A stretch of DNA of 61,143 nt, filler included, from Hausera hauseri (lineage: Eukaryota): assembly GCA_046269625.1 (NCBI GenBank). It is 12 parts of 12 records of this genome, joined end to end, with 100 filler letters (N's around TTAATTAATTAA, not from the genome) between each part and the next. Parts side by side here need not be neighbours in the genome. Positions count along the whole stretch, not along the records: positions 29,509 to 35,221 come from JBJURY010200637.1; 11 more parts are not named here. One strand, written 5' to 3'. Under the pieces are notes generated by a model. It was not told where the DNA came from, made no database searches, and saw only the letters and a list, made by a program, of their open reading frames with translations. Both the position numbers and the translations under genes were made by a program. Below, piece after piece: positions 9,554 to 51,046 of the stretch (the stretch's first letter is position 1; each line of letters opens with the position of its first letter).

Positions 9554-10245
9554 NNNNNNNNNNNNNNNNNNNNNNNNNNNNNNNNNNNNNNNNNNNNTTA
9601 ATTAATTAANNNNNNNNNNNNNNNNNNNNNNNNNNNNNNNNNNNNNNNNNNNNCTTACGCTTATTAAAAAATAGTCACAAAACTCCCCTTATATTTCGCG
9701 GCATTCGGATTTGGATATTTTCTACAAGGTAATTTTGGTGCTTTCATACAGTTCAAATTTTGAAATTTTTTACAATATTTTTCAAATTTTATTCAATAAT
9801 CCTTGTATTTCCTTTTTATGCTGTTTTTGTACACAGCCGCGTTATCACTTTTATAACTTTATTTTACGTGCCAGAACATTTTGATTTAATAACGTTAAAA
9901 GACAATAATGAGATAAATGCCANNNNNNNNNNAAAGGAACTTCCAAATCTTATCGACGATTTGTTTCCTTCGGGATTGACTGACCATGTGAAACTTACGA
10001 TCACAACTGAGAGTTCTTCAATGCCCAAGTATGCAATGTCGAACAAATAAAGGTAAGATTATTAGAGAAATTTAAACCACCGAGAAATCTAGGGCGACTG
10101 TTCAAATATGACAAAAATTATTCTCATTTAAAAGTCAGAATGTTATTTCATAAATTTTTCAAACGACGCAAGAATGAATTTATTTCAAAGTTATCACCCG
10201 TTGATAATAATTTTATTGTTTATCATGCTTTAGTAAAAAGTCAAT

Positions 10246-10760
10246 ATTATTGATGACGCACGTCGTTTCAAATATAAGCCAGGTAAAACTTTTGAAGGAT
10301 TGAAAACGTCCGATTTAAGACTCCTAGTTCTACTCATAGGCTCACCACCTCACAATAACGCACAAGAATTATCTAATCTGTCAAATTTTTGGAACTTTTG
10401 AAGTTTTTCTTAGAATCAGATTTTTTAATGACATACGTAGATTTAAGAAGTGAAGAGCAAGTTGCCAGTCTGAAGTTACTGTTGAAACTCATGATGTTGC
10501 GTCGTTCGGAAAATGTTGAGAAGAGTTTGGCTCCAAAAGAAATCATTGTTGTAGTAGTACTAACCAATATGCAGAAAACATATCACCGTGCAATACTCGA
10601 AAGAAACTTTTCATTTTCGCCCAAAGGAACTTCCGGTAACAATGTGCCAACTTTAATGAACACCACGCTAGAATTAGAAAAATGTTGTAATCACCCTTTT
10701 CTTATCAAAGACGCCGAAGAAGCAATTCTGCATAATTTGAGAAAGAGTTCTGATAAGGGC
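10246..10760 (+). pseudogene. CHD7: Intronless CHD6-9/kismet-type SNF2 helicase fragment (LTR cargo)
   Basis: IIDDARRFK..., LLIGSPPHNNAQEL, DLRSEEQV...MMLRRSENVEKSLAPKE, YHRAILERNF, LEKCCNHPFLIKDAEEAIL match the CHD7-subfamily ATPase. Frameshift near 10388; the DEAH motif is degenerate. Confidence 0.8.
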
Positions 10761-10785
10761 AATATCACGAAATACTTGCGAAAAA

Positions 10786-10920: not shown

Positions 10921-13889
10921 CGCCCCTGGCCATACGATCACTTCATTTTCTTTTTTTTAAACAACCAAAACATTTGCACAATTGCATCAACATACGAGAA
11001 CACCGCAGATTTCTATAACGTCATCTCCACTTCTATTCACTCATCTGACTTTTATCTTACACACAATGGCTCTACGGTACCTATCACCGGAACCCTACAA
11101 TCTTCTTCAACTTATATCTACCTTCACATACACTTCCGCATCCGTGGTGGCATGAATTCATTACCCGTCATAGACACCACGGATAATCCTATCAAATCAC
11201 CGATGTCCATCACTTACCTACCCAAACAAAGTGCTTCAAACATTCCGACACAGCGAACACTCCCCACTTATTCACCCAACACAGAATACTTCCTCGACAG
11301 CCAAAAGTTTACCCAAACATGGTTAAAACTGCATCAATTCTGTCTCCAATCACAAAACGTCGTCGACCCCTTATCCAAAGCCAACAACCTGTTTTTCCGT
11401 TTACCTACTTCTATCAAAACCAAAATTACGAACATCATCGACATCCTTCACCACACCGATCCATATGCTCAACTTTACAATGCTATTCTTAAGCTTACTG
11501 AGCCGTCAATCGACTCTGTCATTCAAATGTTCTTCAGTGACAACGCCATGGACCTACAGAAGCCTTCTGAATTCTTGCGCACATCCTTATCCCACCTTAA
11601 TACCATTGGCATAACATCTGAGCATAGTCCAGAACTTCTTCGTCGCTACTTTTTAAACATTGCCCCTTCAAATAAGAGCTTTGCTCACTTTGGTCGAAGA
11701 CTCCACGACACTGGGAAAGTTAGCCGAACTGGCGGATAAAGCCTATGAAGTGCTGCACTCACACAGCACCAACTGTCTCCGCGGCATTAATAACAAACCA
11801 CCAACGACAAAATGTAATGCTAAAGCAACAAATTTCGCAATTACGTACAGACAACGAAATGTTGCAAAAACAATTAATAATATAAATGAAAAATTAAATG
11901 AATTGACGCTGCCTCGACGAGGTTTTTCTAGGGCTGCTTCCCCTGATGTATTTCGTCAAGGACAAAGACGGTCGCCTTCGCCCGCGCGGTCGTCGATCTG
12001 CTACTATCATAGCAAATTTGGTAACAATGCTCAGAAATTCTGCATCGGTTTTAAATTTTACATCCCCGATTTATATAGTTTTCATCTATCACGCAAAATT
12101 TGGAACAAAAGTACAAAAATGCCTACCAGGCTGTAACCACAACACGCACAATAAAATCAACACTATTAAACTCACACAAAATATTAGGCCAAACTTATCA
12201 GCTGCAAAAAACTGATTTCGCCGCTAGGACACACGGCAAGTTCTAACAAGAGCAACTATCTACAAAAAACCTGGCAGACACATTTGCTGTATTCACGTTT
12301 GAAGCGGCAGTCGTCAGTCCAACAAAGCAAAACATTAATTTTGTTATAGACATCGGCGCAGCAATCTCTTTACTACTATTAACACAGCACGTCCAAAACA
12401 ATTTTGCTTCAAAAAACAAATGTTCACTGCGTCCGGTGAAGCTTTACAAACTTTTGGAATTACTAAATTAACTTTTATCCCACCAAATTTTCCAAACACA
12501 TTCACCTGGAAATTCACAGTAGCCAATATACACACCTGTATTGGGTTCAGACTTTCTGTTCCACTACCATTTACTTGCAGACTGCAAACGATGTTCCTTA
12601 AAGAGCGGAAATAACATTAATTAAATTAGCAGCATTTCGGTGACCATCCGGGCGACTGCTGCCAGCAAGTCAATACCAAAGAAAACGACTTCCGATTTGA
12701 ATTATTTTTTACTCATTCATTATATAGAAATTTTTATTACGGTAACAAATACGATATTGCTAACTGCGTGGCACCCATTACTGATAGCACAGCTTCCAAC
12801 ACTATCTTCAACACGAACATCCTGCACCTATTACCACCCTGTCACAACACCTCGTCTACAACTCATACCTCAACTTCATCCAGTCACGATGCATCGACAC
12901 CATTTGAAAATTTTTCATCATTACCCTCTGACCTACACCAATATTTCGTCTTCCTGCACGCGTCTGTTCTAAAAGGACAAATCATTCATACCACCTAAAT
13001 CCACCTTCCATCACATAGTTACAGCACATCAAAGACCAATACGTCAAAAGGTCCGCCCACTATCACCTCTCCGCAAACAGGCAGTGGAGGCTGAGTTTCT
13101 CGAACTGGAAAAATCAGGAATAATCAGAAGATCCAAATCCCCTTGGTTTTCACCACTACATGTGGTTCCAAAAAAGATGGCACCTTTTGCTCATGCGGTG
13201 ATTACCGTCAACTCAACATTAGAACAACAATGGATGCCTACCCTCTGCTATTAATCAACGATATGCTTCACAGGCTCCATGGCTTGACCATTTTCCTGCA
13301 TTTATTTGCACAGAGCATACCACCAAATTCCGGTGGTCCCAGCAGACATTCCGAAAGCGGCTGTCATTACACCTTTCGGCCTTTTCCAATACTTTTTCAT
13401 TCCTTTTGGACTTTAGCGCTTCCCAGAACTTCCAGAGGCATATCGATACAGTCCTATGAGGTTTAGACTTCACCTATCCCTATATAGATGAGATCCTAGT
13501 TGCATCACCTTCCTCGAAACAACACTCCGAACACTAACGTTTAATCTTCCAGCGTTTGCACCAAAACAATTTGCAAATCAATTTCACCAAGTGCTCTTTT
13601 TTTCAACAAAGTCAACTTCCTAGGACATGTTATTAGCTTCTCCGGACATTCACCTCAGCCAGAGCGCATCACACAGCTCAAAAACATACAGTTACCACGA
13701 ACATCAACAGAGATGCGTTCTTTCCTCGGAACCTTGCACTTTATTCATAAGTATATTTCACACTGCTCCACTCTAGCCTCTGCATTTGCCTTACTAAACT
13801 CTGGCAAGAAAAAACAGCCTATTCAGTGGACCGCCGAGCTAATCTACGCTTTCGATAACCTCAAAGACAATTTAAAAACCGTGGAAATC
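10921..13889 (+). mobile_element. Ty3/Gypsy family-A internal region (gag, protease, RT), frameshifted
   Basis: Gag-like 11152-12136 (DPYAQL..., QKPSEFLR, CYYHSKFG). Protease-like FVIDIGAAISLL ~12340. RT motifs [29 protein letters not shown]. Confidence 0.85.
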
Positions 13890-20074: not shown

Positions 20075-20883
20075 TGAGAAGACGCACGAGAGAATCCCAA
20101 ATAGTCCTTTAAAATTGTGATAAGTTTAAAGGTGTAGAATTTATTTGGTCCAACGACCTTAAACTTATGCTATCAATACTCAACTTGGACCCTCTCCTTG
20201 TCCCAAGTTGGATTTATTTAGTTACAGTATTCGGCAGCCTGTGGGTCTGCCGAAAGTTAGGAATGTTATTTATTTACTTTCTCTTAATGTGTGAGTTCGG
20301 TCGGGAGGTACACCGACGTTGCTCTCCCTTATTTAATGTAAATTAGACAACCGACCTGTATTAAAGGAAGGTATACCAAAAGAGGGATGCCCAAAATTTA
20401 CGTTATTTACGTCTATTGCAATACTATACCTTTTAATTATTTTATACTAAATCAATAAATCAAAACAAATGAAACTACCGGAATATTTAATAAAGTATTA
20501 AATCAAATAATCAATCAAAATATGATAAGAAAATATGAACAAAAGAAATAACAAAACATGACTTACAATTATCATATGTGAGATTCATGATGTATCAGAG
20601 ATCAGTCAAAAGGAAATTGTGTGAGTTGTACAAATAACGCCAGTATTTATAATAAAATTTTGTGTCACCATATGGAAGAAAAATTACAAAAAAATTTAAA
20701 ATGATTAAGGAATAAATCAAAAATAAATTTTTAAACATATGTCAATTATTGGAGAATCAAACATTTCATTTTCTCCACGCAATAAAATAAGCTTTTAAGC
20801 GTATGTCGATTATTGGAGAGTCGCTTTTAAGCACATGTCAATTATTGGATTTCATTTTCGAAATATGTCATTTATTCTGAACA
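20075..20883 (-). repeat. 3' LTR (~809 bp) of the integrase-FN3-exonuclease Gypsy element
   Basis: On the - strand the PPT AAGGAGGGAGAAGA is followed by TGTT at 20883. The LTR ends ...TCTCA at 20075, exactly where the mariner sequence resumes. TATA-like and AATAAA signals lie inside. Confidence 0.7.
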
Positions 20884-23800
20884 TCTTCTCCCTCCTTGGA
20901 TGATGCTGTCCGCAGCATCAAGGGGTAGGCTTCGATAATTCCATTTGAATCTTGATAATCGACGGATTTGATATGGAGTAGTCTTCCTTTCTTCTTAATT
21001 TGTCTCTTTAGGGTAACTGTTTCTGTTTTTGGGATTTTCTTTTTCTTTTTCGGAACTCTGGTTAGGTCAACGACGATTGATTCTGTGGAACTAGCTGCCG
21101 TTATTGGGTTTAGATTAATATAACAGTCTTTTATAGAAGTCAATGCTTGATCACCGGAAGATTGGGTGGATGTCGAGTGGGTGGCAATTGATCGGGTATC
21201 TGGAGATTCTTGTATTTCCATCGGAACTGGGAATTGTTCATTTTTGTATTCCGGAATAAAATTGTAAATTTTTAATATTGTTACTGCTTTCTCTTTTGTT
21301 CTTTGAGGATATATGTTACCATTGTACTGGGTAAAAATCTGTTTGGCCGTGTATGTTCCTTGAGGATTAATACTGTCATGGTATAACAATTCTCTAATTC
21401 CCAATAGATTGTTGTAATCATACCTGAAGGTAGTTGCAAGGGTGTGATAAACATCAATGCCTATGATTACTTTTCCAACGATCATTTTCCTTATGAAGGG
21501 TTCCTCGTGATACGAGTCCTTTTTCCCAATAATATGATCTTCTTTCAGTCCAGTTACGTGGCTGTTATAATTATCAATCTTTTCTCTAGGGCATAAAATT
21601 TCGTCCAAAACAATTCCGCCATCTAGATTCATCAAGGTTACTTCTACCGAAGTCATTTCAGTATTTCTGATAGGGGTGAATAGGTATATAGGATTTACGG
21701 CCATGATTAGCATCTCTTCTTTTAATATTATTGGTTTTCTTGTGAAAGATAGGCCTTGTTTTACGTCGATTTCTTTTGGTTTGGGAGTAGTGTATTTGGG
21801 AATTTCGTAATCCAAATGTGGTATTAGGTCTTTTTTTATAACTTCAAGGTAGATTATTGGGAACACTTCTTGACACGTTCGTATGGTAATTGTAGAATTG
21901 GCGTACAATCTAGGATCCAAACGAATTGTTACACGGGTTAAGACTTCCATCACGTCTGTAATTCCATTGGAGTGTGATTTGCTTTTTAATTGAATAGTCC
22001 CTTTTGCCACGGAGATATATATGGCATAAGTGCGTCCGGAAGTATCAATTAAATCGGAGAGGTTAATTGAACTCTGTCGTACTTTAATTATAAGGCTGCT
22101 CCTTTGCTGGACTGAATAACCTTTGAGATTGTTAGGGATAAAAACGGCTCTTCCATAGTAACAGTAGTCTTTGTTAGAGGTGGCCCATAAATTAGATAGG
22201 ATATGATTGTAAAATGAGTTGGGTCTTTCGGTCCTCTCTGCACCTTCTTGGACTAAAAATAAAAACATTAATGTTAGCCAAGCGGTTTTAGAAGAAGGAA
22301 TATTATCACGTTTTGATTGTTTGTTTTTTATATAGGTCGCTAGGAATTTTGCGGCCTGATTCTGGATTTTTATACAGAGACATACGGTTATGTCTTTTAA
22401 CGGTCGGGTCTGCCGCTCTTGATCGGTAAGTTTTTCAACTTGCCGTTGATTTTCTAAGAAGGGCGCGCTTATGTCTCGTAACGATACCTGGGAATCTTCC
22501 CTTAAAATTTTTAATTGCTCTAATATTTCCCTTGTTCTACTTTGTCGTCGCTTTATTTTAGAAAAGTAAATTACTAAAGGTAAAAGTATAGCTAGTAATA
22601 TTAAAAGGACACATAGTAAACTGATTATCCAAAGATGTTTATTCGAGGTTTGTTCTGGTTTCTGTGTAGTTGTCCTTGGTATAATCCTAGGAGTAGTTAT
22701 TGTCTGTTTTAAAGTCTTCTCTGTACGAAAAACTGTTCGTAACTTTTCTCCTTCGTCATCTAATTCTGTTATGACGACTTTATAATTTGTGTCAGTTTTT
22801 AGGAACATACACGCAGATGTCGGTTCTTCAGGAGTTAGAACTCCTTCACTAATCACTTTATGGTTAAGATGACATTCGAATTTTATGTTTGTATTCTTTA
22901 GGTCAGGCACTGTAATAACTAATGAATGACTTGTTGGTTGGATAATTATATCCAGTTCTTTAATATCCTTCTGGGATTCCATCATTGGAGTAGTTACTAC
23001 TGTTTGTAATGTGGTTGATGTACTTGGTTTTGTTACTGAGGCAGTTGTTTTTCTTGTTGAAGTAGGGGTTACCTTTATCGGAGATCTGACTATTATCTCT
23101 GGACCGTCTGCTGTTTTTGACCATGTATAGCCGTTATACGTGGTCCAGTAATATATCATATACTGTTTATCAAAAGCGATAGGACAACACATATATGGAT
23201 TTCGGTAATTCGGTTTACAATATGTGGTATTAGTGCCATCGGATATTTCATATTGGAATGTTACATACCTCGTGATTTGTACTTCTGGCTCTGCTGTTAT
23301 ACAAGGTCCATTTTTCATAATTTTCGAATAAAATGAGATAAGGAAGTATGGTCGATGGAAATAATGTGTAGTACCAGGGTATGAGAAATATGTTCTATAA
23401 CTCTGGTCGCTTTTTCCTGTTGCGTATTGAATCCTGTACGTTTCTCCGAATGAAAGTCCACAGCAATTATGTATCGAGTGATTATAATATAGATCACAAT
23501 TTTCCGGTGTCGCTTTTTCCACTATAGGTAATTTCGATATGAATATGTGTATATACTCGTCTATTGTTAAGTTCCGATTAGCCGTAATCTTTATACAAGG
23601 GTATTTTCCAACTTGTACGGCCTTGTAATTTACATCTAAGGACTGAGCTGACACGTTAGTCACTAAAATTAGCATCATAAGTGTTATCATTAGCGATGGA
23701 CTAAAGTTTTCATTTCTTATTTTTAACTCTATTGGTGCAGGCTTGCATCTATTCACATGAACTTTTATTGGGTTCATCTTACCTCTTTTATTTTTGTTTA

Positions 23801-25234
23801 AGTAGACGTTGGTTTCGTCTACTTTCTGAATCATGTATGGACCTTTATATGGTCTATCTAGTTTTGGTGTCTTTCCTTTCTTACTTAAGGGTGTGTGCAG
23901 CATGACTTTATCTCCAGGTTTGAAGTCATGTGGCTTAGCCTTTTCGTCGTAACGACTTTTATATTCTTTCTGACATATTTTTGTGTGTCGTGAGGCCAAA
24001 CTCCATACGTATCCTAATTTTTCCTCTAGTAATTCTTTATATTCCAAGTCTTTTAAATGAGATACAGGCGTTTTGAAGTCCAAATCGATCGGCATATGAG
24101 TATCTCTAAGATACATCAGATAGAAGGGAGTTTCTTTTGTTGCCGGGTGGATTGTGTTTCTAATAGCGAATAAGCATGGTTTGATATACTCATCCCAATC
24201 ATCCTGTCTTTCATTTACCATAGTGGCCAACATGTTGGTTAAGATTCCGTTAAATCTTTCCACTGTTCCATTCGTTTGAGGATGATACGGGGTAGTTTTT
24301 AGTTGTAGTATGTGGAATATTTTCGATATTTCTGCCATAACTTCTCCTGTGAAGTTTGGTGCTTGATCCGTCAATAGTTTGGTTGGTGCACCATAATTAA
24401 AAACGATTTCTTCGACGAAAGCTTGAGCGATGGTTTGGGCCTTTTGATCAGGTATTGGTATTACAACTGGCCATCTAGAAAATAGATCGACAAACACTAA
24501 CATGTATTTATTTCCATTAATCGTTAGAGGCAGTGGTCCCAAGATATCCATTGCTGAAAATTCCATAGGGGCTGGTGGACATTCTATTGGTTTGAGAGGG
24601 ACTCTGATTTTTGAACCGGTGTTCTTTCTAGTGGCACAGACTGGACAACTCTTACACCAGTCTTGAACATCTTTAGTCATAGTATACCAGTAGTATTTTC
24701 TTTTCAGTCTTCCTAATGTCCTCTTTACTGATTGATGTCCTCCCATCATACCATCGTGGTATTGCGTCAACAACAATTTAATATCTTCTTGAGGAACGAC
24801 AACAACTAATTTTCCTTTATAATTGTAGTGCAATATGTCATTTTTTGTCTCATAATTTTCAGCAAACTGTTTCAGGTGAGTGTAAAGATTGATATCACTC
24901 GGTACCGTTTTCCTTTTTAAATACTCCTTGATTTCTTTGATTTGTTCGTCATTTTGTTGTTTTCGTAGTAACGACTCTTCTTGTTCTGTGATACTCCATA
25001 TAGCTGCTATGACACCAGGTTTATCTGTAGATTCTTCTTCTGATTGACCTGTATCTTCTGGTATTCGTGACATGTAATCGGCGTTCGCATTTGCTTTCCC
25101 CATTTTATATTCAAATTTAAGATCATACGGTTGGAGTAACATAGCCCATTTCATTAATCGACTATTCGGGTTTTTGTGATTTTTCAGCCACTGTAATGGT
25201 TTGTGATCCGTATAAACAACGATGGGTTTGGTTT
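20868..25234 (-). CDS. Gypsy Pol C-terminus (RNase H end, integrase) fused in frame to a signal peptide, FN3-like repeats, Thr-rich stalk, TM helix and DEDDh-exonuclease-like domain
   Basis: The frame is open to the contig edge (YTDHKPL). Motifs in order: ANANADYMSR; HHCC (YHDGMMGGH...CKSC); DILGP, TDQAPNF, VERFN; GPY; SLMITLMMLILVTNVSA; CGLSFGETYRI/CPIAFDKQYMI/FLKTDTNYKV; LWIISLLCVLLILLAILLPLVIYF; VEVTLMNLDGGIVLDEILCPREKIDNYNSHVTGLKEDHI. Confidence 0.9.
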
Positions 25235-28269: not shown

Positions 28270-29408
28270 TTATACTATGACAATTCCGTTTTTCGTTATT
28301 TCAACCTCGGCATCAAATACACCGTAAATGTACATCATAGTAGATTGCTCCAACGCTTTAGCAAAGTGAACCTTCAATCTCAGGTTTCCTTGCTAAAGTA
28401 GTTGAGGCTGTTCAACGACATAATCCGGAGCCAGTAAAAAGGTGAAGAATGGATAGGTGGACTTAAACAAATCCATCGATATGCCATTGTTGATGTTTTT
28501 CGTTCATCAAACCCAAGTTGCGCACGATAGATTGCATATATGTGCAAACATAATCGCCGGTCTAGAAATCCTGCTTGTATGTCTCAACGAAATCCGCATT
28601 ACGATCCAGAGTGATGTAATTCACATTGCTGTGGGTAAACGTTTCCGAATCGGTGGTATAACTTCCCCTTTTGTTGAACAGTCGTTTGAAATGTAGCAAG
28701 CACAAATTTCGGCAATTGCATGTCGCCAAACAGTGCATCTTTGTACAACATAGTTAAACCTTTGGGTGTGGTGTAAAAGACGAGTTCTGTGCGTTGTATC
28801 GGGTAACAGGCATTTAGAGTTTCCAAACCCAATCGATGTTCCATGAGCACAGCTTGTTCTACCTTTAATCGACGTACGCATAATCGTGCCTCGGTAATTT
28901 TCAGTATGGGTTTGAGACTTGCAACGGTGGTTTTCAAACAAAAGACATTGTCGCTGCGCTTGAGCCGAATCATGGCTTTAACACCAGGCAGCAAGTATTT
29001 CGACTGATCCAAAAAGTCGAAGTACAGCAGCCGAAACATTGTAAGTGCTTTTGATTCAGCCACTCATGGCTTACGGTTTGCTGCTGTGTCGTCATATTCA
29101 ATGGTTTTCGTCAAATGAGTCGTTTTCGCCTCAACACTCTAATTTAGAGCCATTTTAATGAGTGCATTGATACAGTATAGACTGGTGTTGCCTTCGATTT
29201 GGCGCTGTTTAGAGTCAGTGAAGCCTCCTGGAACAGTGTAATGAAAAGGTAATTGGCCGGCGTGACAGTGTCTGTTGCAGTGAGAACCGTTGATGCATCC
29301 TTTTTAACAATGACTTTTACATAGAGTAGCCTATCGTTCAAATCCAGGTATTCATTGTCCGATGCCATAATGTTGAATTGAATGTCAATGTTATCGTCCG
29401 TCGAGACG
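28270..29408 (-). pseudogene. Polinton/adintovirus major capsid (double jelly-roll) protein, frameshifted
   Basis: EYLDLNDRLLYVK, PANYLFITLFQEASLTLN, QSKYLLPGVKAMIRLKRS, KITEARLCVRRLKV, ACYPIQRTE, QLPKFV, and C-terminal GNLRLKVHFAKALE...VFDAEVEI, typical of animal Polinton MCPs. Adjacent to the protease. Confidence 0.75.
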
Positions 29409-29508: not shown

Positions 29509-31109
29509 AGGAAATTTTGTTAAGATTAAAGATAATTAACCATGCCAGAAATGTGCAGCGGTTGACCTGAAGCGGTGTATAAGCGTTTAGTTCTGAATGG
29601 TAAACTTTGTACAGGAAAGGTTTGTGGTAATAAAGAAATTGCTGCACCTGTATCGATGAGGAAATTAACGGATTGCGTTGTAGGAGCGGTGATTGCAGCC
29701 TTTAGGGTAAAAACAGCAAAAGAAGCGTGTCGGCATTCAAAAAGTGACGCAGTGCCTTTGCCAGAGTTTGCCGTGATTTCAGGCGGCAAACTTAGTTATT
29801 TTGGAAAGGTAAACTAAGACGACTATTAAAAGAAAAGATAGCACGTCCGTTGTTCGTATCTGGTTTGACAGTGCAGCCTAGAATGCATTTGCGAGCTTGA
29901 TTTTTAAACTTTGCGTGGTAAATGCAAATTACGGTGTCTGAAACAGCTTTTATTACAAAATTTGCACACTGGGCAGCATTTCTTGGCATTCTTATTGAAT
30001 CTGCTGTGATAGTAGCAGATTGACGACCGCGCAGGAGATGGTAACCGGTTTCTAGATGCGAAATGGGCGCGGTCAGCAACAAAATTTCTTTGCCGGGACA
30101 AGGAAAGCTCGTTTAATTTGATGTTTATATTGTTAATTGTTGCTTGTAGTGCTGTATTTTCGGCACGTAACTGATTTAGTTGTTGCTCTATTGATGCATT
30201 ATTGTTTTGGATACCGATAGTGACAACTGCGGCAGAAACGACTGGTGGGGAATTTAAGTGTTAAACGTCGTGTCTTTTATCGGCTAATTCGGCCAATTCT
30301 TCAAGAGCCGTGAAGTCCTCCACCACGGAAAGTAGAGCCCGAATTTGGATGGGTAATGCGTTGAGAAAGTAGTGACGCAGTAGTTCGGGGTTGTGTTCAT
30401 TAGTGACGCCGAAAGTGTGCAGATGTGTCAAAGACGTGCGTAAAAATTCTGATGGTCGTTATGTGACTATAGCATTGTCGTGGAAGAAGCGTTGTTTGAT
30501 CGTGTCCATTGAGGGTTCTGTGATTTTAAGAACGGCGTTGGAAAGTTGTGAATATGGATCAGGAAGTTCAAATATTTCAAGGATGTTGTGAATTTGTGTT
30601 TCAATATTGTTAGGGAGTAGGAAGAGAAGATTGTGTGCCTTAGTTAAGGAATCGGTGACGTTATTGGCTTGTAGCCACAGTTGGTGGAATTGTAAGCAAG
30701 TTTTGCTGGAGCCTTGGTTGTCAATGAAGAATTCGGTGCAGTGAAGGAAAGGAGCGGAAGAGGTAGTAGCTGAAGGGTTATTAGCGGAAGTAGGGGTGGG
30801 TTTTTGAAGCAGTATTACAGATTTTTGTTTCATGGTGGTTTTATCCGTGGTGTCTATGGTTGGCGATGAGTTCATGCCACCGTGGATACGGAAGTGTATG
30901 GGAGGTGGATATAAGTTAAAGAAGGTTTCAGGGTCCCAACAAGAAATACTGTGGAGCCGTGGTGTGTGAGGTAAAAGTCAGGTGAGCGAAGAAAAGTGGA
31001 GAAGACATTGTAGATAGCCGCATTGTTTAAATGTGTTAATGCAGTTGTGTAAATATGTTTATTATTTAAAAAAGAAAAGGGAATACAGAGAGGTCAGTAG
31101 CCTGGGGCG
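29509..31109 (-). mobile_element. Gypsy family-A internal region copy 2 (leader, gag, protease)
   Basis: Gag MNSSPTIDTTD homologous to the ORF at 11152; SICYYHSRF; protease FLIDTGAAISLLP. Confidence 0.85.
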
Positions 31110-31239
31110 TGTCGTGAGGCGTCAGCGAACGGTGTCGTCCGACCCAATGGCACAGGGTGGGCGGCCGGGACTTCAGCCTCGCCGCGTCAAATCCCAAACT
31201 TCTGGGTGACCGAGTTCCCCGCATACAATGTTTTCTTAT

Positions 31240-32135
31240 CAGTCACTTTCGGATATGATAGAACGAATTTTGTTCTTTTAATTTGTGCAGAATTTGTCAT
31301 TGAATTTTTTAGTACTTCTGGAATATTCTCTTCTTCTCGTTTGCGTTTTAATTCTACGTCTTTCAAAGTTCCCGCTTTTCGCGTTGTTCTCAAGTTTCAA
31401 ACTTTAATTCGCTCACTTTTTACCAATAGCCGACCCAAATGGCTGATAAACTTCGTTGGATGTGTCGTGGAATCCGCGTGGAATTGCCTGGTAAAATGGA
31501 ATTTCATCGCTGTAGTTTATACCAGGTTTCTTCTTGTTGTTTATCGGTTTTTCGATTATTCTCACTTCTGCATATTTACGTTTCTCCTGTACAGCCGCCA
31601 ATCTCCTTGCCATTATCAGCTGCCTTTCTTGTCCTTTACGTTTGGCCTCTTTTTCTTGGATATTTGTCAGCCTAGCACGTGCCCCATTCAACATATCAAT
31701 TTCATCTCTTGCCATGTCAATTGGATCAGGTTTGGCTGGTCCACTCTCTGGTCCGACGTCGGTATCATCTTGCCGTATATTATCTATGTTTGTAGTTCCT
31801 TCTGTATCAGCACGACTTTTATCAATCAATAAATTGTACTGCTGTACGCATTGTGATGCTATACGTCCAATTATATCTGATATAGTTCGCCATTGCATCG
31901 GCAAAACCTTTCCTAAATGTAACAGTTTTTTATTTTTATCTTGCGTCCTTTCGGTCTTTCTCACTGTCGGTGATAACCATTCGTACCATTTGGATTTGCA
32001 CTGCTGTGCTGATTTACGATTTAACAATGGGGTTACTCTGGCCCACTGATTTGTGTCGTATTTTATGATGGTCGATTTAAGAACTTCATCCTCAACATTT
32101 GTCTAAATACCACCCTTCCACAAACGACTCGTATT
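31240..32135 (-). pseudogene. CDC5L: Intronless CDC5L (Myb-repeat splicing factor) N-terminal fragment
   Basis: KGGI*TNVEDEVLK, QWARV, RKSAQQCKSKWYEWLSP, LLHLGKVLPMQWRTI, ESGPAKPDPIDM, ARARLTN, INYSDEIPF, PRGFHDTS, KRTKFVLSYPKVTD. Contains stops and frameshifts. Confidence 0.88.
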
Positions 32136-32199
32136 AGAACCGTTTCTCAGATTAGACGGGGCTTTCTTGGTTGTTGTTTGCACGGAGCAAATAAATTCT

Positions 32200-33090
32200 T
32201 GCCTCTACTTAGCGTTTTTTTGTTGATTTGTATAAACCGATGTCAACAATGCGGCTCTTTGTTAATCCATCAGGCATGTGTGCCTTCCTGCTGTATACCT
32301 CAACATATCTCGGAACCTTACTGGGATCAGCAAAATTGATGCCGATGCATACACCAACGATTACTGAGTCCGGTCGCCGGTTGCTAACGACCATTGCTAC
32401 TGGCTTTTTGCAAACAAATGTGATACTCTGTTCCTGATTGGCCGTGCGACTATTAAGTACATTCTGAGTACAATTTCAACAGCCGATCTTCACTGAATGA
32501 AACGTCGTTCGTCTGTTCACAGTGTTTGCAAAAATTAACGGGAATATGACCACATAATGGATCATAAAGAAAAACGCTATCCTGAGTCTTGTGCTGTTTT
32601 TGTTGACCTTCAATGGTTGTTGTTGGACCATCGGTAATATGTTTAAACACAGGTGTGCGATCAAAACAATGATATAAATATGAATTTCTGAATGAGTCGC
32701 ATAGCAAGCACAACCCATCAGAAGTAGCGACCATAGATACTGTAGCAGTGCGACTACCTCCGTTATTGATTGTGCGCCATGGAAAGATGATAGCATCCGT
32801 AACTTTGGTAAGACTGCCTACCTATATATCGGACATCTCAAGTGATACTGGCCCAGCACCACAGTGACTCTCCGCTACCAGATAGGCAAATCTGTCCGGC
32901 CCAACAGCCAAGCAGAACAGTATGTTGTTGTGTGCGCAAGCGGCCGTCAGTAAACCTGGTTGGGAGGGAACAAATGCCCATCTGGTTAGAGTTAGCGGAG
33001 GGTCGTTACCAGTTGTATCGAGAAAGTAGTTGGTATCGACGTACAGATCATCAACACCCGTTTGCAAAACGGAGCAGAACATGTATCCGT
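32200..33090 (-). pseudogene. UBR4: Intronless internal UBR4 (p600/purity of essence) fragment
   Basis: LTRWAFVPSQPGLL...AVGPD, IPVNFCKHCEQTNDVSF...LLKLY and DSVIVGVCIGI...VPRYVEVYSR...SRIVDI align by eye, in order, with UBR4 LCQWSEV..HPGLV, FPIDFFEH..QLTDVEFGG.DLLQVY and MVMTGMRIQIG...APSYIEIFGR...SRWFDF. Confidence 0.65.
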
Positions 33091-33399
33091 GATTATTATT
33101 AGAATTTTTAAAATTTGAAACGGATGGAAATAACAGCATTACCTTTTTGAAAATATCCATATCCGAGTGCCACAAATTCTTCTGACACCATTTGTTATTC
33201 TTTATGCTGTCGAATAATTTCAATGACCCTTGTATTTGATTTGTTGTCTCGTCCTCGGCCCATTTCTTGAGATGTTCAGTACTTTGTTATTGAAAGCAGT
33301 AGATACTTTGTTATCTTAGTATTATTGATCATAAGTATAAGACTTTGATAAAAAAAATTAGAAATTCGAAAATTCGGAGAAAGCATATAGAAATGGCAA

Positions 33400-34612: not shown

Positions 34613-34712
34613 GAAGAGTCGGACCCGATTATCGATCCGACGCGGCGATAGCGGACGCCCGGCCGTGCCCGACCAAATGGGCCAGAGGACACCGGCCGCG
34701 ATGGGCACCACA
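34613..34712 (-). repeat. Family-A LTR left terminus (motif X)
   Basis: GC-rich ~100-bp motif homologous to 41279-41377 and 50341-50445. Confidence 0.85.
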
Positions 34713-35221
34713 GTATAGACGAATCAAAAAGAAGGGGACGCGGAGATGTAGTGATGGATAAAAGGACACAGGAAAAAGTACGGAAATTTATGAAAACTGA
34801 AAATTTCCAGGAATTATTCTTCAACGGAATGGAGGGAAGTTGGAACGATAAGCAGATCTTCATGCTGGAAGAATTATACGTCGAACAGATGTCATACACG
34901 AAGTTTTTGCTGGACGACCAGGAATCAAATTAAAGATGCAAGACAGACGGGAAGATTGCTTATTGGACACAGGGCTACGGTAAATGTCATAAGCAAGAAG
35001 GTCGTGGATAATCTTGCAAACACACACATAGAGAAATCAGATATCACACTACCATGTGCGCACAATAGCCCCTTAGATTGTCTGGGCACACTCACAACAG
35101 ACGTAGAAATCAAGAGTCTAAAGAGACGCCTGACATTTCTGGTTGTGTCGGATTTACGGCCAGAAATAATAGGTGGAGTGGACCTGCAAAAGGCATTCGG
35201 AATAGAACTGGGATGGAAACG
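34713..35221 (+). mobile_element. Gypsy family-B gag/protease fragment (insertion target)
   Basis: Homologous to the reverse complement of 52300-52805 (CLLDTGLR protease-like site; LRPEIIGGVDLQKAFGIELGWK). Confidence 0.8.
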
Positions 35222-35593: not shown

Positions 35594-36160
35594 CTATTTG
35601 GACTTCTGGGTTCCATTTAAACATCGGTTTCGACATTTGGCCAAAAGCTCCCGTACTCCCTGGATTTTTTGTGTATGGTGGGTATAATTGTCCCTTAACG
35701 ATTGAGGTATTGAATTGTTTTTAATGTAAGACATTTCAGACCCTGTATCGATTAAGGCATAAACTTCCCAATCTTCGATAATAATTTTGGCGAAGGGCCT
35801 TTCTTCTATCACCGTTCCGAAGCAGTTTGATGCATCCATTGAGCGTTTTGCCGCCGATATCTTATGTCCGTTGATTCGGATTTCTGGGGAGGATACTATA
35901 TTCTCTGCCAGTTGCCTTAACTCTCCGTTTGGGTATAATTCATTGTTTTCGATGTTTAAGTTTTCTGCTTCGTGAGTACTGATTAATGATTTTCGATTGT
36001 TAGTATGTATTTCGGTAGTCTGGAAGGTTTTTAATCTTGGATTGTCCCAAACTGGTGATCTAGTTTCTATATTTCGAGGTTTTCTCGGGGAATACAACAT
36101 CCGGGGATTATCTACGGGCCGTTGGTAACACATTTTCCGTAGGATCCTGTAGCGTTTCAT
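35594..36160 (-). CDS. Retroviral-type aspartic protease region of a retroelement polyprotein
   Basis: RPFAKIIIEDWEVYALIDTGSEMSYI. Confidence 0.75.
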   Translation of the reverse strand: MKRYRILRKMCYQRPVDNPRMLYSPRKPRNIETRSPVWDNPRLKTFQTTEIHTNNRKSLISTHEAENLNIENNELYPNGELRQLAENIVSSPEIRINGHKISAAKRSMDASNCFGTVIEERPFAKIIIEDWEVYALIDTGSEMSYIKNNSIPQSLRDNYTHHTQKIQGVRELLAKCRNRCLNGTQKSK

Positions 36161-36177
36161 GCATTCATACGAGTCTT

Positions 36178-38320
36178 CTACATTAATTGTCCTTTTATAT
36201 ATTTCCGTCTGGATGAACTCATGGATCGTTTGTCACAGTCTTCGTAGACTGTAGCAGTCGGAGGTGACATAGTCAATGGTGCTTTAATGACAGAGTACAT
36301 CTTATGTTTGTTTATTCCTGAAAGTACTTCTCCTCCATTAGGCTCGTCATCACCTGAATTATTTCCTCGTATATTAGGTTTTGTAAGTTTCTGCTTTCGC
36401 AAGGATATAGGCCTTCCTTTACGTTTACGATTATAGTAACCGACATGGCGTTCTACGTCCGATTTCCATCTATTTTCTTCGTATGCCTTTAAGAATTTTC
36501 CAAAGGGCGTTCTGATTGCAGTCAGTATCTTACATGAAAATCCAGTCAATGTAAATATTTCATACCCATTTATTACTGCTAGGATGACTGCTTTAATCAT
36601 TTGTATCAGAAAATATATCGCTAAGAAACCGGATGCGGCTTGGCCAAAAATCAAAAATCTTCTCCAAATTTTGTAGAGTATTTCTGTTGTTACTCGCTGA
36701 TAATGGTTTACACCGAGTAACGATTCCCATTTGGCCTGATGTCGTGTATCGTCTACTACGGAAGCCATGGCTCGGTTTAATTCATGTGTTCTTTGTCGCG
36801 GAAAAGCAAGGAATTGTCTAAAGGCTTCGATTTCCTTAGGCCTGTATATGCCTTTTGACGAGGTGTCTTGAAATTCATAGTCCATAATTCCTTTCGCAAG
36901 GTTTATGCCTGTTAATTTATTTGGGGAGGCAGTAATGCCTCCATTTGGCAAACTAACCCCGTCTGTTTTACTACGTCTAAACATGGGCTCTCCTAAGCTT
37001 GCCTCACAATCCTTAAGGATAGTTGGTTGGGTTGCATTATCCAGTAACACTCTCGTCAATGGTGTAGCCAATCTGGGAATATTCTGATAGATGACAGGTA
37101 GTTCCTGAATGCAACGTTTTTCGTCCACGTTAATGGATACATCTCTCTTTTCGCATTTATAGGTCAGCAGTACCTCGCCCGTAACCCGACCGAAAATTCC
37201 CTCTGTTATAGGAATTATTGGAGAAGCCAATTCTGGGTTGGCGTATATAACGGACAGTTTCGTCCTCATGATTTCGGTATCTAATTTTCAGTCGTTAGTT
37301 ATCATTTTGTGATATAATTCAGCTATTCCGACTAGCCTCTTGTAGTAGAAGTAATCGTCTCTGTTTTTCAGATAATCCTCAATTCGGACATCCTGCGTCT
37401 CTAGTTTGTAAGTCTTTGCATTTATTTTCGTTTCTGCGACGAAAAATGCCTCATAGTTAGTAGCGAACATCACTACGTCACAACGAGAGACAATCTCTTT
37501 TTTGATAAATCTTAGTCCATGTTGATCCGAGATCAATATAGTGGATGTAGGATGTTTTGATACGTTCTTGCGTATCCTTGAATTGGTATCCGATTTATTT
37601 ATATAACGTTTTCCGGTAGTTTCATTAAACTTCAGTTCCTTAATTTTAATAAAATTACGGCTTCTTCCAGAAGGTGGTTCCCATATTATAACGGAATTTC
37701 TAAAAGCACAGGTTCCATCTTGTAAGTGGCACTTACAAGATTTTCAGTGTATAACTTAGTGACACTATGAAACATTACTTTCTGTGAATGCATCTCCGAT
37801 TCGTAGAAATCCACTACTACCACATTTGCTTCCAATCCTTTTCCAGTATCGTATTACGCTCCGTAACAATGTCCGTTATGCATGTCTAACCTTCCCGCCA
37901 CTATTTTGTATGCCCTAATTAAATGTCCTTGTTGAATTTCCAATTGCATATTGCCCAGTTGTACTCTTCCAGTTTCCTTAGCCTGTTTGCAGTGCTGGCG
38001 TTCTAGGTTTATTGGAATAAGAAGAGTGGTTGGTTTGATTATTGAGGAATGTCCGTATACTAAACCACAGTGAAAAATTCTACGAGATCGTCTCAGCATA
38101 CATTCCATCTCATCTAGCGATATCAGGTCTTGATGTTGATACAAGAAGTAATTTTTCTCTCTTGTTTCCAACTTGTGCGGTCTGGAATCCTCGCACACTT
38201 CCAGATCCATTAGGGAATGTCTTTGTCCTAGTTTAAACTTATCGCAGTGGTAGACGGTTACAGTGCCTATGTGCTTTATTAGCATCATTAAGGTGAGTAA
38301 GCTAATTAGCCAATTTGATT
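36178..38320 (-). pseudogene. Chuvirus-like (class III-type) envelope glycoprotein, frameshifted
   Basis: Signal WLISLLTLMMLIKHIG; VYHCD...SLMDLEVC; CMLRRSRRIFHCG; CKQAKETG; VAGRLDMHNGHCYG; GEVLLTYKC; CIQELPVIYQN...TPLTRVL; GIYRPKEIEAFRQFLAFP; TM FGQAASGFLAIYFLI...INGY. Confidence 0.8.
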
Positions 38321-39990
38321 TATTTTTCCGGCATCCAACATCCGCCGTTGTCAAATTACGTAACATTTTGTCGAATTTATTACCGGTCCGTCTGTCTTCT
38401 TCCTTGACAAACAGTCTTAACCAATTTACTTCACACGGCAGTCTTCTTGCCACTTTCCGTGCTAGGCTTATAGCCTTATTGATTTTATTCTCTCGATTGG
38501 GGTTTATTTTAATATCTAAGTTTAGTAATACTTTTCTCAATTCCTCATTGATGTTTTCTACCATAATCTTTTCGATTACCGATTCATCGGTTAAGTTACT
38601 TTTCGACAGCTTAAAACGTGAACTTCTCATCATTTTAGCTCCTTCGAAAATTATCTTTTCTTTGTCATCTAATACGTCACCTCGAAGGCTCGAATAATTT
38701 ACGATTCGTATTAAATTCTTCATTAGCTCGCTTAATTCCTCATTGTTTGTACTGTTAGTCGGAATCGATATCTGCCTCAGTTCTCTAATCATTTCCCCAT
38801 TATAGTCAACTTCTTCTCTCGTTTTCTTAGGCCTACCAACTGGGCGTTTCGGCCTTTGGCATTTAGTGGTTAGTTCACTGAATGGTACAAAATTTATATC
38901 GTATTGTTCCTTATCTTTATCTGTTTGTAAATACTCGAAATACATTGCAGCGTCTCGGAATCCCATGATTTGTCCTACGCATTGTCCCGTCTTGGCTTTA
39001 CGTCTGGCCTCTTCTTTTGTCTGTTTGTTAGCTATTATAACTACTATCCGATTTGTTTCGTCGGGGATAATCACGACATCTATTAATTGTTCTAGGTCGT
39101 CAAGTATTCTACCTCTAAAGTAAAACCTAGAATTTAACTCGCCTGTTCCTCCATTATTTAATAACCATTCTCTTACGTCTCTCACATAGAAATAAGTAGT
39201 TAATTTCCATTCTTTTTCAGCCATCCACTGGTATGATATTATTACTTTCATCGCTACCTCAGGTTTAGCCCTCAAGATTTTAGCGTATTTCTTTATCAAA
39301 AGCTTCGGCACCGTGCTATAAATCGTATTCTTACTAGATAAATTAGTTAATATCGGAATAAGTTGTCTTAACTTACTTTAAGTAATGTTTACATTAATTA
39401 GCTCGATTAAATCCGTTTCAATTTGCGCTGAATCCAGTATCATTCCACATTGAATCTCCTGTTCTGCGTGCATGTTTCTGTCTCATTTAGTTGTACTGGA
39501 GTCACGGGGTTTTCGGCAAGCATTGCGTCGAAGTATGCATCCCATACGGGTTCGTTTCCAGCATCTGGAAATCCATATTCTACTGTATTCGTTTTTTCAC
39601 GTTTTCCCTAATTTCTTTTAATCTTCGTTGTATTTCTTTCATCTGCGTGGTTTGGAAGCCTATTCCATTTCTACAGGCATACTGAATAATTATCAGTAAT
39701 TCGCCTAATTCATTAGAATTGATGAATCCCTTTTGGTGATAATCAGTTATTTCGATAATTTTATCTCTTTGCCATCTTTGTACGAATTCTTGCTTGTTTT
39801 TAATTTCTGATTTGGTAAAAGCATATTTGTTTCGGTAGCTTTCGAACTCTTTTGCTAGATCATCTAGTCTCGTTGCTCTTTGTTTTGTTCTGATGCACGT
39901 TTCTTCTACTTGCTGTAATTTGGGAATCAATTGCCTCATCTTTTTGTCATTAATTTCCACCATTTCTACCAATAAGTAGGCGGGATCCAT
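38321..39990 (-). CDS. N-terminal polyprotein region with ubiquitin-like segment and AT-hook
   Basis: VRDVREWL...SRFYFRGRILDDLEQLIDV resembles the Ubl motif RLIFxGKxLxD; RPVGRPKK is an AT-hook. Same ORF (37854-39311) as the start of the glycoprotein. A helical ORF lies upstream at 39580-39990. Confidence 0.5.
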
Positions 39991-40141
39991 TGCGTCCTAC
40001 AATTTCTTTACGAACTTACATTCCTGAAAACTAAGATGCCTNNNNNNNNNNNNNNNNNNNNNNNNNNNNNNNNNNNNNNNNNNNNTTAATTAATTAANNN
40101 NNNNNNNNNNNNNNNNNNNNNNNNNNNNNNNNNNNNNNNNN

Positions 40142-41270
40142 ATCATCAGTTTCATCCAAATTGCTGAATTTTACAAGAACACCTTTGCAACGATTTAGTT
40201 CATTATTTTTCAATCCGAAAAGTATATTGCCCTCTGTAGAAATGAAGCACATATAACCAATGAAATCCGATTCATTGAGAATTTATTTTGGAATAGTTGA
40301 GTAATTTTGACCGCATTTAATAAAGTTATCTTTGAAGTCAACGGAAGCCATATTATCTGCGTAACTAGGAGGTCCACGTAACATGCTTTTAACAAGCACC
40401 CTTTGGCAATGAGAAAAAATAAAAATTTATACGTTTATGCATATTTAATAAACTGTTAAACAAAACTAAGTGTTGTTCTGCCGTATAAAACATAGCCATC
40501 GGCAATGCAGTATAATTTTTTAACCAGAATTGCATCTAGCACCTAAAGAAAATGTTTGAAACATTTTTACTTCATCGCCAATTCTGACCTGTCGTCGGTG
40601 CACTCTCCATACTTGGTGACCAGAGGTTCAAAGTAAAACAAACTGCCCTTAACCGAGCAAGGTATCCACGGTAAGTTAGAAAACTTAGGAATTAATTGAT
40701 TTCAGAATATTTGAGAGTAGTTTTGTCGACCGTAAACTTGAATAGGATGTTCTGAGAATATAATGTGGTGATCAACTAATTTCTGATTTCAAGCGACGTG
40801 TAGAACATTTTATACCAATTGAGAGCGCTATTTATCACTTGGTTGGAAAACACCAACGATAACGGCAAATCACCAGCCGTTGTTGAAATCAGTTCGCCTT
40901 CACAAAGTTGATGGAAGCCTTTCATGCAGGACATGTCCCCGAAAACACCTTCAAGAATTGGTAGTTCCTCGCAGTCGGATTTAAAAAAGAATTTCACATA
41001 ACTTTTGCAAATCCCTTCCAAAATGTTAAATGCTGCAGTTACTCTCTTAGTTCTGGCAATTAATTCCTTTTTAATATTATCTGCCTTGTTCTGAAACATT
41101 GCTGTTCGAGTAGATGATTGATTATCGCTGTCGGTAAAATGACAAATCGAAACTAACATATATATCCGCTTGAAGAGTGGAAAATATTTCCTTTAAAATC
41201 TTTTTGGTTTTCGTCGTTTTCGTTTCCATCAAAACATCGAAACGACACAAAAATATGCTCACTGAAACCC
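40142..41270 (-). pseudogene. Unidentified degraded coding fragment in the 3' LTR interior
   Basis: ORFs 40776-41159 and 40210-40395 lie on the element's sense strand directly after motif X. No family recognised. Confidence 0.35.
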
Positions 41271-41278
41271 CCGAGGCA

Positions 41279-41377
41279 GAAGATCGGGTCCGCCTACGGG
41301 CCCGACGCGGCTGCAGCGGACGCCCGGCCGTATCCCACCAAATGGGCCAAAGGGCACTGGTCGCCGTGGGCACCACA
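41279..41377 (-). repeat. Family-A 3' LTR start (motif X) preceded by PPT
   Basis: The - strand reads GGGAGGTGA|TGTGGTGCCC just downstream of the family-A pol end. Confidence 0.85.
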
Positions 41378-49678: not shown

Positions 49679-50247
49679 TGAGATACCACACTACGATGTG
49701 CGAATAATAGCCCCTTAGATTGCCTGGACACATTGACAATAAAGTAGAAATCAAGGAACTTAGGAGACGCGTAACATTCCTGGTAGTGTCGGAATTACGC
49801 CCAGAAATAATAGGTGGTGTCACCTGCAAAAGGCATTTGGAATAGAATTGGGATAGAAACGCACGGACACGGAAACATTACAACAAGACATATGCAGCCT
49901 GGAAGCAAAATTCGGCCTGAAGATGACTAACCAAGAACGAGTCAACAGGACGAAGAAAACTCTTCAGGTGAGTGACAACAAGGAGCTATTCATCATCGTA
50001 CAAAAATACCCAGAGGTATTCATGGCCGACAAGTAGAACATAGGGTGCACACCTCTCATCAAACACCGAATAGACAAGACAGAAGCGCCGATTAATATTA
50101 AACCTCATAGGCAAGCGGTAAACCTAGAGAAGAAAATCGACCAAACCATCCAAAACCTGTAGATAAACGACATTATCAAGCCATGTAACTCAGCATGGAA
50201 TATACCAATGATGTGCGAATGGAAGAAAGTCAAGAACGATGTGAGAA
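49679..50247 (+). mobile_element. Gypsy family-B protease/RT-start fragment
   Basis: Homologous to the reverse complement of ~51920-52490. Confidence 0.8.
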
Positions 50248-50340
50248 CCTATTCGGATGTATAAGAGCTGATGAATTTCTCAAGTTTATGGCCCATTTTA
50301 TTAAACACTCAAATGCATCGAAAGATGTGCCAACTTTCTT

Positions 50341-50445
50341 TGTGGTGCCCACCGCGGCTGGTGCCCTTTGGCCCATTTTGACTGGGTTGGGCCGGGCGTT
50401 CCTTTATCGCCGCGTCGGATTCATAGTTTGGTCAGATTCTCTACC
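50341..50445 (+). repeat. Family-A LTR motif X, third copy
   Basis: TGTGGTGCCCACCGCGGCTGGTGCCCTTTGGCCCATTT...GGCCGGGCG...TCGCCGCGTCGG. Confidence 0.85.
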
Positions 50446-50581
50446 TCTAGAGTTTTACCGGTAGATTAAAAGTCAGAAGACCAGTGGAATTCATAAATAT
50501 CAATGACAGTGCCACAAAGATGCAGAGTGTTTATATCCATTCAAATTTCCACAACAATTTAACGAAAAACCGAGTTTAATT

Positions 50582-50900
50582 AAGGAAATTATTCCCATTA
50601 ACACAGGTTAAGCTGGAGCAAAATTATCCAATGCAGTGTGGAACTATTTCATATCGAATATGGAGTACAAACCAAAGGAACTCTGGACGAACGTTTAAGA
50701 GGTGACGACAGTTATACCTGTAAAGCATTCTGCAGGAAGTCCCGATGAAGAATTACTTCCCGAGAACAATTTCTATTGATTTGGAACCAACCGTTATTGA
50801 TGAAGTTAGAACAAGAAACTACCGAAACTTATGATGCCCAGATCAACATATATTTAATTTTGAAGAAGCTCCAAGAACATTTTACATTAAACGAATGGCT
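50582..50900 (+). pseudogene. Alpha-tubulin N-terminal fragment (LTR cargo)
   Basis: KEIIPINTG*AGAKLSNAVW/ELFHIEYGVQ and FPRTISIDLEPTVIDEVRTRNYRNL; DLEPTVIDEVRT is alpha-tubulin-specific. Not in the ORF track because of stops and frameshifts. Confidence 0.85.
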
Positions 50901-51046
50901 AAGAACAGTTGCAGTTTTGACAACGAACTCAGGGCGTTTGACAAGTACTTTATAGTCAGAATAATCAAATGTGTCTGTATCGTTTCAATTTGTTGGCTGC
51001 GTGCGCATCCACACCATCCACATCATCGCCCAGCCGGGGTTATACA

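Follow-up and report, generated by a model that had tools for sequence, protein, structure and literature searches.

Inverted similarity between the LTR head and a probable leader sequence in a cargo-carrying Ty3/gypsy family of Hausera hauseri

Retrotransposons of the CsRn1 clade (CsRn1, PwRn1 and AgCR) have a primer binding site (PBS) for tRNA-Trp, a CX2HX9CX3C motif in Gag and target-site duplications of 4 bp (PMC2582038). In Ty1, a 5' sequence downstream of the PBS, CYC5, pairs with the 3' end of the genomic RNA, CYC3, and this is required for reverse transcription (PMC3592414, which also refers to circularization in HIV-1). In animals, retroposition mediated by long terminal repeat (LTR) elements joins intron-free, partial pieces of several host genes to an LTR element, by template switching at short shared words (Tan et al. 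2016, PMC5131818), and for Tf1 and sushi elements self-priming has been proposed, in which the RNA folds back and the bases after U5 pair with its first 11 nt (PMC7175516). We compare these systems with a Ty3/gypsy family, family A, found in a stretch of 61,143 nucleotides of Hausera hauseri DNA (assembly GCA_046269625.1), here called the window. The GC-rich head of its LTR, X, has an imperfect inverted counterpart, Y, ahead of gag. Our tentative reading is that Y is an inverted copy of the polypurine tract (PPT) and the LTR head, and that it most likely lies in the 5' leader and not at the LTR end. From there, according to prediction, it would pair with X, and the genomic RNA would form a closed panhandle.

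The window consists of 12 short contigs joined with N linkers, and pieces of family A lie in four of them. The 5' part, with Y and gag, is found in contigs 3 and 7; pol, the PPT and X are in contig 9, and a third X is in contig 11. Assembled, the order is X, host cargo, tRNA-Leu PBS, host cargo, Y, ubiquitin-like domain, Gag, Pol, PPT, X. The reverse transcriptase, RNase H and DDE integrase of contig 9 (41378..44811, minus strand, broken) follow each other in the Ty3/gypsy arrangement, with Pfam matches to rve and Integrase_H2C2, and the PPT at their end (41386-41378) is directly followed by the TG of a 3' LTR start (41386-41371). The X that opens this LTR (41270..41377, minus) is succeeded by sequence without assigned identity up to the contig end. 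In contig 7, X (34615..34712, minus) starts precisely where the contig departs from an uninterrupted copy of a different gypsy family, family B, and comparison of the junction places the insertion in the protease region of family B (34713..35221, minus, 86% identical to 52303-52808). The third X (50341..50450, plus) has an unrelated left flank. Since the TGTGGTG start of X (at 34712 and 41377 on the minus strand and at 50341 on the plus strand) follows three unrelated flanks, among them the PPT in contig 9 and the family B junction in contig 7, we take X to be the 5' end of the LTR.

Family A resembles the CsRn1 clade in the CX2HX9CX3C motif, which is intact in contig 7 and imperfect in contig 3, a DUF7041-like Gag, the order protease, reverse transcriptase, RNase H and integrase, and an LTR starting with TGT. 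Its integrase clade is sister to Trp-PBS elements. It differs in its tRNA-Leu PBS, the ubiquitin-like domain before Gag, the LTR body and leader made of host pieces and the long inverted copy of the LTR head, and because its PBS is not of the Trp type we do not place it in that clade. As in the cyclization of Ty1, the 5' element Y lies downstream of the PBS and is complementary to the 3' end of the RNA, but here the 5' partner appears as an inverted duplicate of the PPT and LTR head, 70-110 nt long and 2 kb from the PBS, and its pairing is a prediction. Steamer gypsy elements share the identical 12-nt tRNA-Leu PBS, but have short ordinary LTRs (153-219 bp) starting with TGTAACA (PMC8905726). 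The cargo of family A is intron-free and consists of partial host genes, as in LTR-mediated retrocopies (a CDC5L piece runs over 217 residues without a gap, the parent CDC5L gene being out of view). In those the retrocopy replaces the internal open reading frames (ORFs) between the LTRs, whereas family A retains gag-pol and carries the pieces in its LTR body and leader, where in relatives they are even in frame with Gag. DIRS elements combine inverted ends with a tyrosine recombinase; this class was rejected for family A, which has an integrase instead. A literature search, with most subscription papers outside its reach, found no report of a long inverted LTR-head copy in a leader or of host mRNA replacing an LTR body.

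The tRNA-Leu primer binding site and the place of Y

An earlier note on this DNA had taken X and Y as the two termini of one LTR and had seen no tRNA PBS. The supposed LTR interior does, however, contain an exact 12-nt tRNA-Leu(CAA) site, TGGTGTCAGAAG, on the element strand (33179..33190, minus), 1.5 kb after X and 2.1 kb upstream of Y. It is the only exact match in the window (read 33190-33179), and about 1.6e-4 matches to such a 12-mer would be expected by chance between X and Y. The 12-mer is the 3' end of tRNA-Leu(CAA) (PMC7997516) and the PBS of the bivalve Steamer elements (PMC8905726), an identity taken from a mouse probe and the bivalve paper and not from host tRNAs; no tRNA gene was found in the window. 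Directly after Y there is no TGG, the nearest being at +7 in contig 3, with none in 59 nt in contig 7.

The site is typical of the clade. In an integrase tree (FastTree, 39 rows) the window element and its nearest metagenome relatives, L001-L005 and L008, form one clade with support 99, at 40-45% integrase identity. This clade is sister to a set of elements with Trp-type sites, which occur only in that sister group (joint support 87, from FastTree only and with no named CsRn1 reference in the tree). The 12-mer was present in 3 of 80 metagenome loci, L001, L002 and L008, all of them in the element's integrase clade, and there it closes the LTRs about 340-690 bp after the LTR start. The translation of the PBS was also found within the first 300 residues, upstream of the domain, in 9 of 15 full-length proteins with a ubiquitin-like domain and Gag, as compared to 1 of 383 controls. 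These 15 were picked by hand, on one long match reaching into Gag, from the 150 profile-search matches listed, mostly ubiquitin repeats, and the controls were 383 other proteins of the analysis. Because it is present in the three nearest loci and in these related Gag proteins, we regard the Leu PBS as the clade's own site, and the 5' LTR of family A is therefore most likely X together with the host-gene cargo up to the PBS. The reading without a PBS is probably wrong, and the view of Y as an LTR terminus was not confirmed, the PBS upstream of Y contradicting its premise.

A block of 78 bases behind the PBS (33094..33171, minus) is the only part of the interior that contigs 7 and 3 have in common, 60 of the bases being identical to 9700..9777 (plus). 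Pairwise alignments of 60 bases of this block between the window and L001, L002 and L008 were not significant. A short motif behind the PBS is common to the window, L001 and L008, with 4 matches in 825,750 bases as compared to 0.1 expected, for a pattern picked after inspection. In contig 3 a short C-rich tract follows a CA in the place of the PBS (9654-9700); its opposite strand resembles a PPT followed by TGTG, and it is possibly a second mirror (47 bases available). Both copies also have a splice-donor-like AG/GTAAT about 30 bases behind the PBS position (33151-33178 and 9700-9730). Splicing from this GT was considered, and by inspection no conserved AG after a pyrimidine tract was seen in the two copies.

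The contig depth of the one public run that holds the stretch, X1, also bears on the place of Y, summed contig depth not being the same as copy number. Depth peaks at 6184 over Y, below the peak of 8616 over the ubiquitin-like region, and the loose ends at the CA end of Y were leader-like, none with a random flank, in the 6 of 137 rows inspected. A bin with about 50 bases of X averages 6283 and the neighbouring bin 56; since only these 50 bases account for the bin mean, the depth of X would be several times above that of Y. The depth drops at the PBS, where the gag side has 227-424 and the X side 56-129, and the run has further joints that leave out stretches of the interior. The 4-5 bases to the left of X do not recur after any CA of contig 7. 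Taken with the PBS, we consider it rather likely that Y is a leader element in tRNA-primed copies.

Similarity, conservation and predicted pairing of X and Y

The inverted repeat of X and Y is real and unusual, though weaker than the imperfect 110 bp of the earlier note implies. In contig 7, where both belong to the same copy, 49 of 70 positions are identical in the best local alignment, which scores 44 as compared to a mean of 18.6 and a maximum of 34 among 1000 dinucleotide shuffles (z 8.5). The other pairs are weaker, with z 4.2 for the X of contig 9 and 6.1 for that of contig 11 against the Y of contig 7 (Y7), and 1.5, 2.8 and -0.2 for the three pairs with the Y of contig 3 (Y3). Because the identity of X and Y is merely 48-59% across about 114 aligned columns, the 110 bp describe an extent and not a uniform stem. 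Ordinary LTRs, as had been stated, have only a few such bases: the perfect terminal inverted repeats were 0-7 bp in 9 of 9, with a best z of 2.6 (a score of 0 in two of them goes with offset coordinates). X and Y fall into two separate groups. Both contain GC-box-like words and have a GC content of 56-72%, as compared to about 40% for the contigs.

The motifs quoted for X and Y are all present, and both Y copies do read CA/CGCCCCWGGC. In contig 7 Y (31110..31251, minus) ends with CACGACA on the element strand and is identical at 121 of 141 positions to the second copy in contig 3 (10779..10920, plus). The tract after it (31060..31109, minus) is pyrimidine-rich on the element strand and in this sense a mirror of the PPT, but the purine content of its antisense strand is just 60-70%, and it overlaps the start of the ubiquitin-like frame, partly coding for the first residues of that domain on the sense strand. 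Between contigs 3 and 7 Y is 86% identical, as compared to 77% for the post-PBS block, 74% for the ubiquitin-like part and 63% for gag. As the best-conserved stretch between the two copies, Y is probably under selection.

On the element-sense RNA, the predicted duplex of Y and X in contig 7 has an energy of -120.9 kcal/mol (z -7.2), and the binding that is left after self-folding is -32.8, as compared to -11.4 +/- 4.4 for shuffles. All six X/Y pairs are more stable on the sense strand. Eight of 21 fixed differences between X and Y keep a G-U pair on the sense RNA and two on the antisense, and the window has no CpG depletion that could account for this bias. The panhandle of the earlier note has a predicted sense-RNA duplex in its favour and survives as a possible aid to strand transfer, while the priming without tRNA that was attached to it is a minority reading among those weighed below. 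For the bases after the CA of Y, pairing with X or the PPT was at the level of shuffles, of which 30-176 in 200 did as well (longest exact match 5 nt). The self-folding of X and Y was no better than that of shuffles either (z -1.96 to +1.70, 10 strands), and the 72.5% of cells that pair in an inner hairpin of X are equalled by 211 of 500 shuffles. Rfam gave nothing at gathering score in the window, and since the matches around X, Y and the PBS were at chance level (E up to 10), there appears to be no known ribozyme or RNA gene there. No relatives of X or Y were found in the 80 metagenome loci, and none of 77 viral matches to a 15-mer extends past 23 bases.

A comparable mirror was seen in the relative L004 (83-107), 85 nt ahead of the ubiquitin ATG. 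There, 18 of 25 bases repeat in inverted form the PPT and LTR head of L004 itself, which are AT-rich and differ from those of family A. As good a copy appeared in 13 of 3000 shuffles over the contig and in 1 of 3000 in the first 420 nt. The last six PPT bases match this mirror exactly, and it ends with CG and not CA. The close relative L008 lacks it.

Host-gene cargo, ubiquitin-like domain and neighbouring elements

That a co-packaged mRNA stands behind the variable LTR interior, as had been proposed, agrees with the present results, for host mRNA pieces do fill the variable region. Cargo zone 1 of contig 7 (33191..34600, minus), which we infer to be the LTR body, is host-like and ends in a G-alpha coding piece (about 33265-33191; Pfam G-alpha E 5.7e-4, PDB G(o) alpha E 0.014, both weak matches). 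This piece meets the PBS without a spacer, the codons N-N-K-W sharing their TGG with it. Upstream in the zone lies a stretch that we take to be kinase-like, a label the searches did not confirm. Cargo zone 2, in the leader (31252..33090, minus), includes an intron-free 5' part of CDC5L (31416-32102). In protein comparison 150 of 217 aligned residues are identical, without gaps, to protein P0121 (69%, as compared to 47-53% for named animals), which points to divergent proteins in this animal host. P0121, the nearest CDC5L relative, has an unrelated RING-like tail and may be a chimeric frame. A second piece in zone 2 is presumably UBR4-like, again without confirmation by the searches. Zone 2 of contig 3 has a CHD-type helicase piece (10377..10778, plus) before Y, and the cargo beside Y is wholly different between the two contigs. 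All identified pieces lie on the element sense strand, and in contrast to the intron-free cargo, a kinase gene of the host, in contig 4, is interrupted by a GT-AG intron. In both contigs 3 and 7 gag follows the cargo, and the internal ORFs are not replaced. After the third X (50450-51040) there is a short stretch that we presume to be tubulin-like, a label likewise not confirmed.

In the relatives L004 and L008 Gag is preceded by ubiquitin (Pfam E 1e-24 and 6e-19), and elsewhere by a diverged domain ending in a di-glycine. Family A has a diverged ubiquitin-like form, broken in contig 7 (30876..31109, minus); Pfam ubiquitin gave no match in the window copies, and the counterpart in contig 3 aligns with L004 through the di-glycine (E 7e-12 for the whole ORF). 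The domain is followed in contig 7 by a broken DUF7041-like Gag and the start of the protease (29509..30875, minus), and in contig 3 by Gag, protease and reverse transcriptase, also broken (10921..13889 with the ubiquitin-like leader to 11151, plus). The in-frame stop within Y and the ATG directly after the di-glycine suggest that Gag of family A has its own start.

A ubiquitin or ubiquitin-like domain fused before Gag was observed in this gypsy clade (L001-L004 and L008; proteins P0249-P0409; 10921-11151 and 30876-31109 in the window). In many cases the reading frame is already open upstream of the tRNA-Leu PBS, and its start may lie within host pieces. Histone H2A (P0365, P0406) and Hsp90 (P0322) stand in frame before the PBS word, and a 5'-nucleotidase piece stands in frame between the PBS word and Gag in P0409; contig 7 likewise has host pieces on either side of the PBS. 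Among 223 candidates no homologue of the window Gag was found, and scans of viral and prokaryote genomes for the element proteins gave nothing except one ubiquitin-only match. No description of a natural ubiquitin-Gag gypsy element was found in the literature search, under the same restriction to mostly non-subscription papers.

The window also contains other elements. Family B (34713-35221; 49679-53837) has three zinc knuckles, is broken and is very abundant in run X1, with a summed depth of 170,000-420,000. Of the three X copies, two are located within or next to family B, of which contig 11 has two copies in opposite orientation. At 35597-39996 there is an element, broken in pieces, whose fusion glycoprotein gene is of the Monjiviricetes type (Pfam E 6e-34), and at 20871-25232 an open frame of at least 1454 codons with an RNase H end, an integrase and a long tail with a weak Fn3-like match. 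A long array of 15-base units with a 30-base period (4488-9553) has open frames rich in His, Met, Thr and Lys, for which no function was found. We take the broken frames at 28602-29407 to be Polinton-like capsid pieces, one of which gave no Pfam match when tested.

Explanations for Y and their meaning

If the leader does contain the PPT and LTR head in inverted form as Y, as we tentatively believe, replication could proceed as follows. tRNA-Leu at the PBS would start minus-strand synthesis, and reverse transcriptase would often cross onto a co-packaged host mRNA by short homology, perhaps as at the TGG where G-alpha meets the PBS in contig 7. A stem of Y and X, resembling CYC5/CYC3 of Ty1, would hold the 3' X close to the 5' region, and the growing strand would return at the inner edge of X; this return would leave X unchanged despite turnover of the LTR body. 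The relatives have a frame that stays open from a point upstream of the PBS as far as Gag, and there host proteases acting at the ubiquitin domain would free Gag from its variable front.

Several observations weigh against this reading. Every copy of family A is broken, the contigs are 4-7 kb, and none spans both ends of the element. Run X1 may be the source of the window, and the loose ends inspected are a small sample. Over the PBS block the summed depth is 108-234, as compared to thousands over gag, so many copies may lack a close match to the block; contig 3 has the post-PBS block and no PBS, and in one contig, of depth 6.5, X and Y are separated by 14 letters, again with no PBS. The binding of Y3 is weak (-14.5 to -20.2, as compared to about -12 for shuffles), its own X lying outside the window. 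Eleven of the 21 fixed differences are transversions that break the pairing, and common Y variants in run X1 match X slightly oftener than Y7 does (12 as compared to 9). The covariation that the earlier note proposed to look for did not emerge, 1 of 4 jointly variable columns being concordant, a count without power at five sequences and one same-copy pair. A mirror was present in 1 of 5 relatives, L004, and in 0 of 9 ordinary elements, and was first spotted by eye.

Part of this speaks for the model of the earlier note, in which X to Y is the LTR, the CA of Y is the integrase end, the Leu PBS is a relic of cargo, and priming takes place without tRNA, for example by a PPT end that is annealed to the mirror and primes across Y. 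The X-14-letters-Y contig, contig 3 and the low depth of the PBS block fit it, as do the CACGACA followed by the PPT mirror in both Y copies and the exact match of the last six PPT bases in L004. The intact, clade-typical PBS in contig 7 argues against it, and so do a depth of Y that is not above that of the leader, the absence of random-flank loose ends among the rows inspected, the shuffle-level complementarity of X and the PPT to what follows the CA, and the L004 mirror without a terminal CA. It gains nothing from the missing copy of the X flank after any CA in contig 7, which is expected where there is no 3' end, and we find this model rather unlikely. The proposed self-priming of Tf1 and sushi is similar in its RNA fold-back and in having no tRNA site beside the apparent U5 end. 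It was rejected for family A, where no 11-nt complement follows the CA of Y (the RNA start position is not fixed) and a tRNA PBS exists upstream; with pairing at chance level it is without support. A bolder variant is that the family is leaving tRNA priming: the 3' PPT and X would anneal to the Y mirror, RNase H would cut at the PPT/X border, and the PPT end would prime the minus strand across Y. One tract would then prime both strands, X to Y would be the LTR, and the interior with the old PBS would be exchangeable host mRNA, in a clade that uses the ubiquitin domain to free Gag from host frames. We regard this as improbable. Very improbable, in our view, is the coexistence of tRNA-primed copies of the contig 7 type with derived copies that lack the PBS and have X to Y as a short palindromic LTR; the X-14-Y joint, the other joints that skip the interior and contig 3 agree with it, but the X-14-Y joint is a single contig and a plain deletion accounts for it.

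It is also conceivable, though unlikely, that Y is functional without pairing to the 3' X, as a duplicated promoter (sense subgenomic or antisense) or as a translation element that helps ribosomes past the cargo to Gag, possibly by pairing with a 5' X. There are 71 ATGs between X and Y, 37 of them after the PBS, the ubiquitin-like frame adjoins Y and has its in-frame stop there, the GC-box-like words suit a promoter, and many fixed differences break the pairing. Such a role leaves the mirrored PPT, the G-U bias on the sense strand and the AT-rich mirror of L004 unexplained. Finally, Y could be a functionless relic, left when a single old template switch placed an inverted PPT and LTR head in the leader. 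The family captures sequence freely, X and Y form separate groups with low identity, and L001, L002 and L008 work without a mirror; but Y has stayed at 86% between the copies while gag is at 63% and the adjacent cargo is wholly different, and we consider such a relic distinctly improbable.

LTR replication is thought to need a conserved R-U5 beside the primer site. If the preferred reading of Y as a leader copy of the PPT and LTR head is true, a whole gypsy clade tolerates, and perhaps uses, the replacement of its LTR body and leader by host mRNA, and the clade would be a steady source of shuffled retrocopies that LTR finders miss. The complementarity of Y and X would then give a handle on how strand transfer is steered when the terminal homology shrinks to a head of 100 bases. 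The clade with ubiquitin fused to Gag may matter more than the Y mirror itself.

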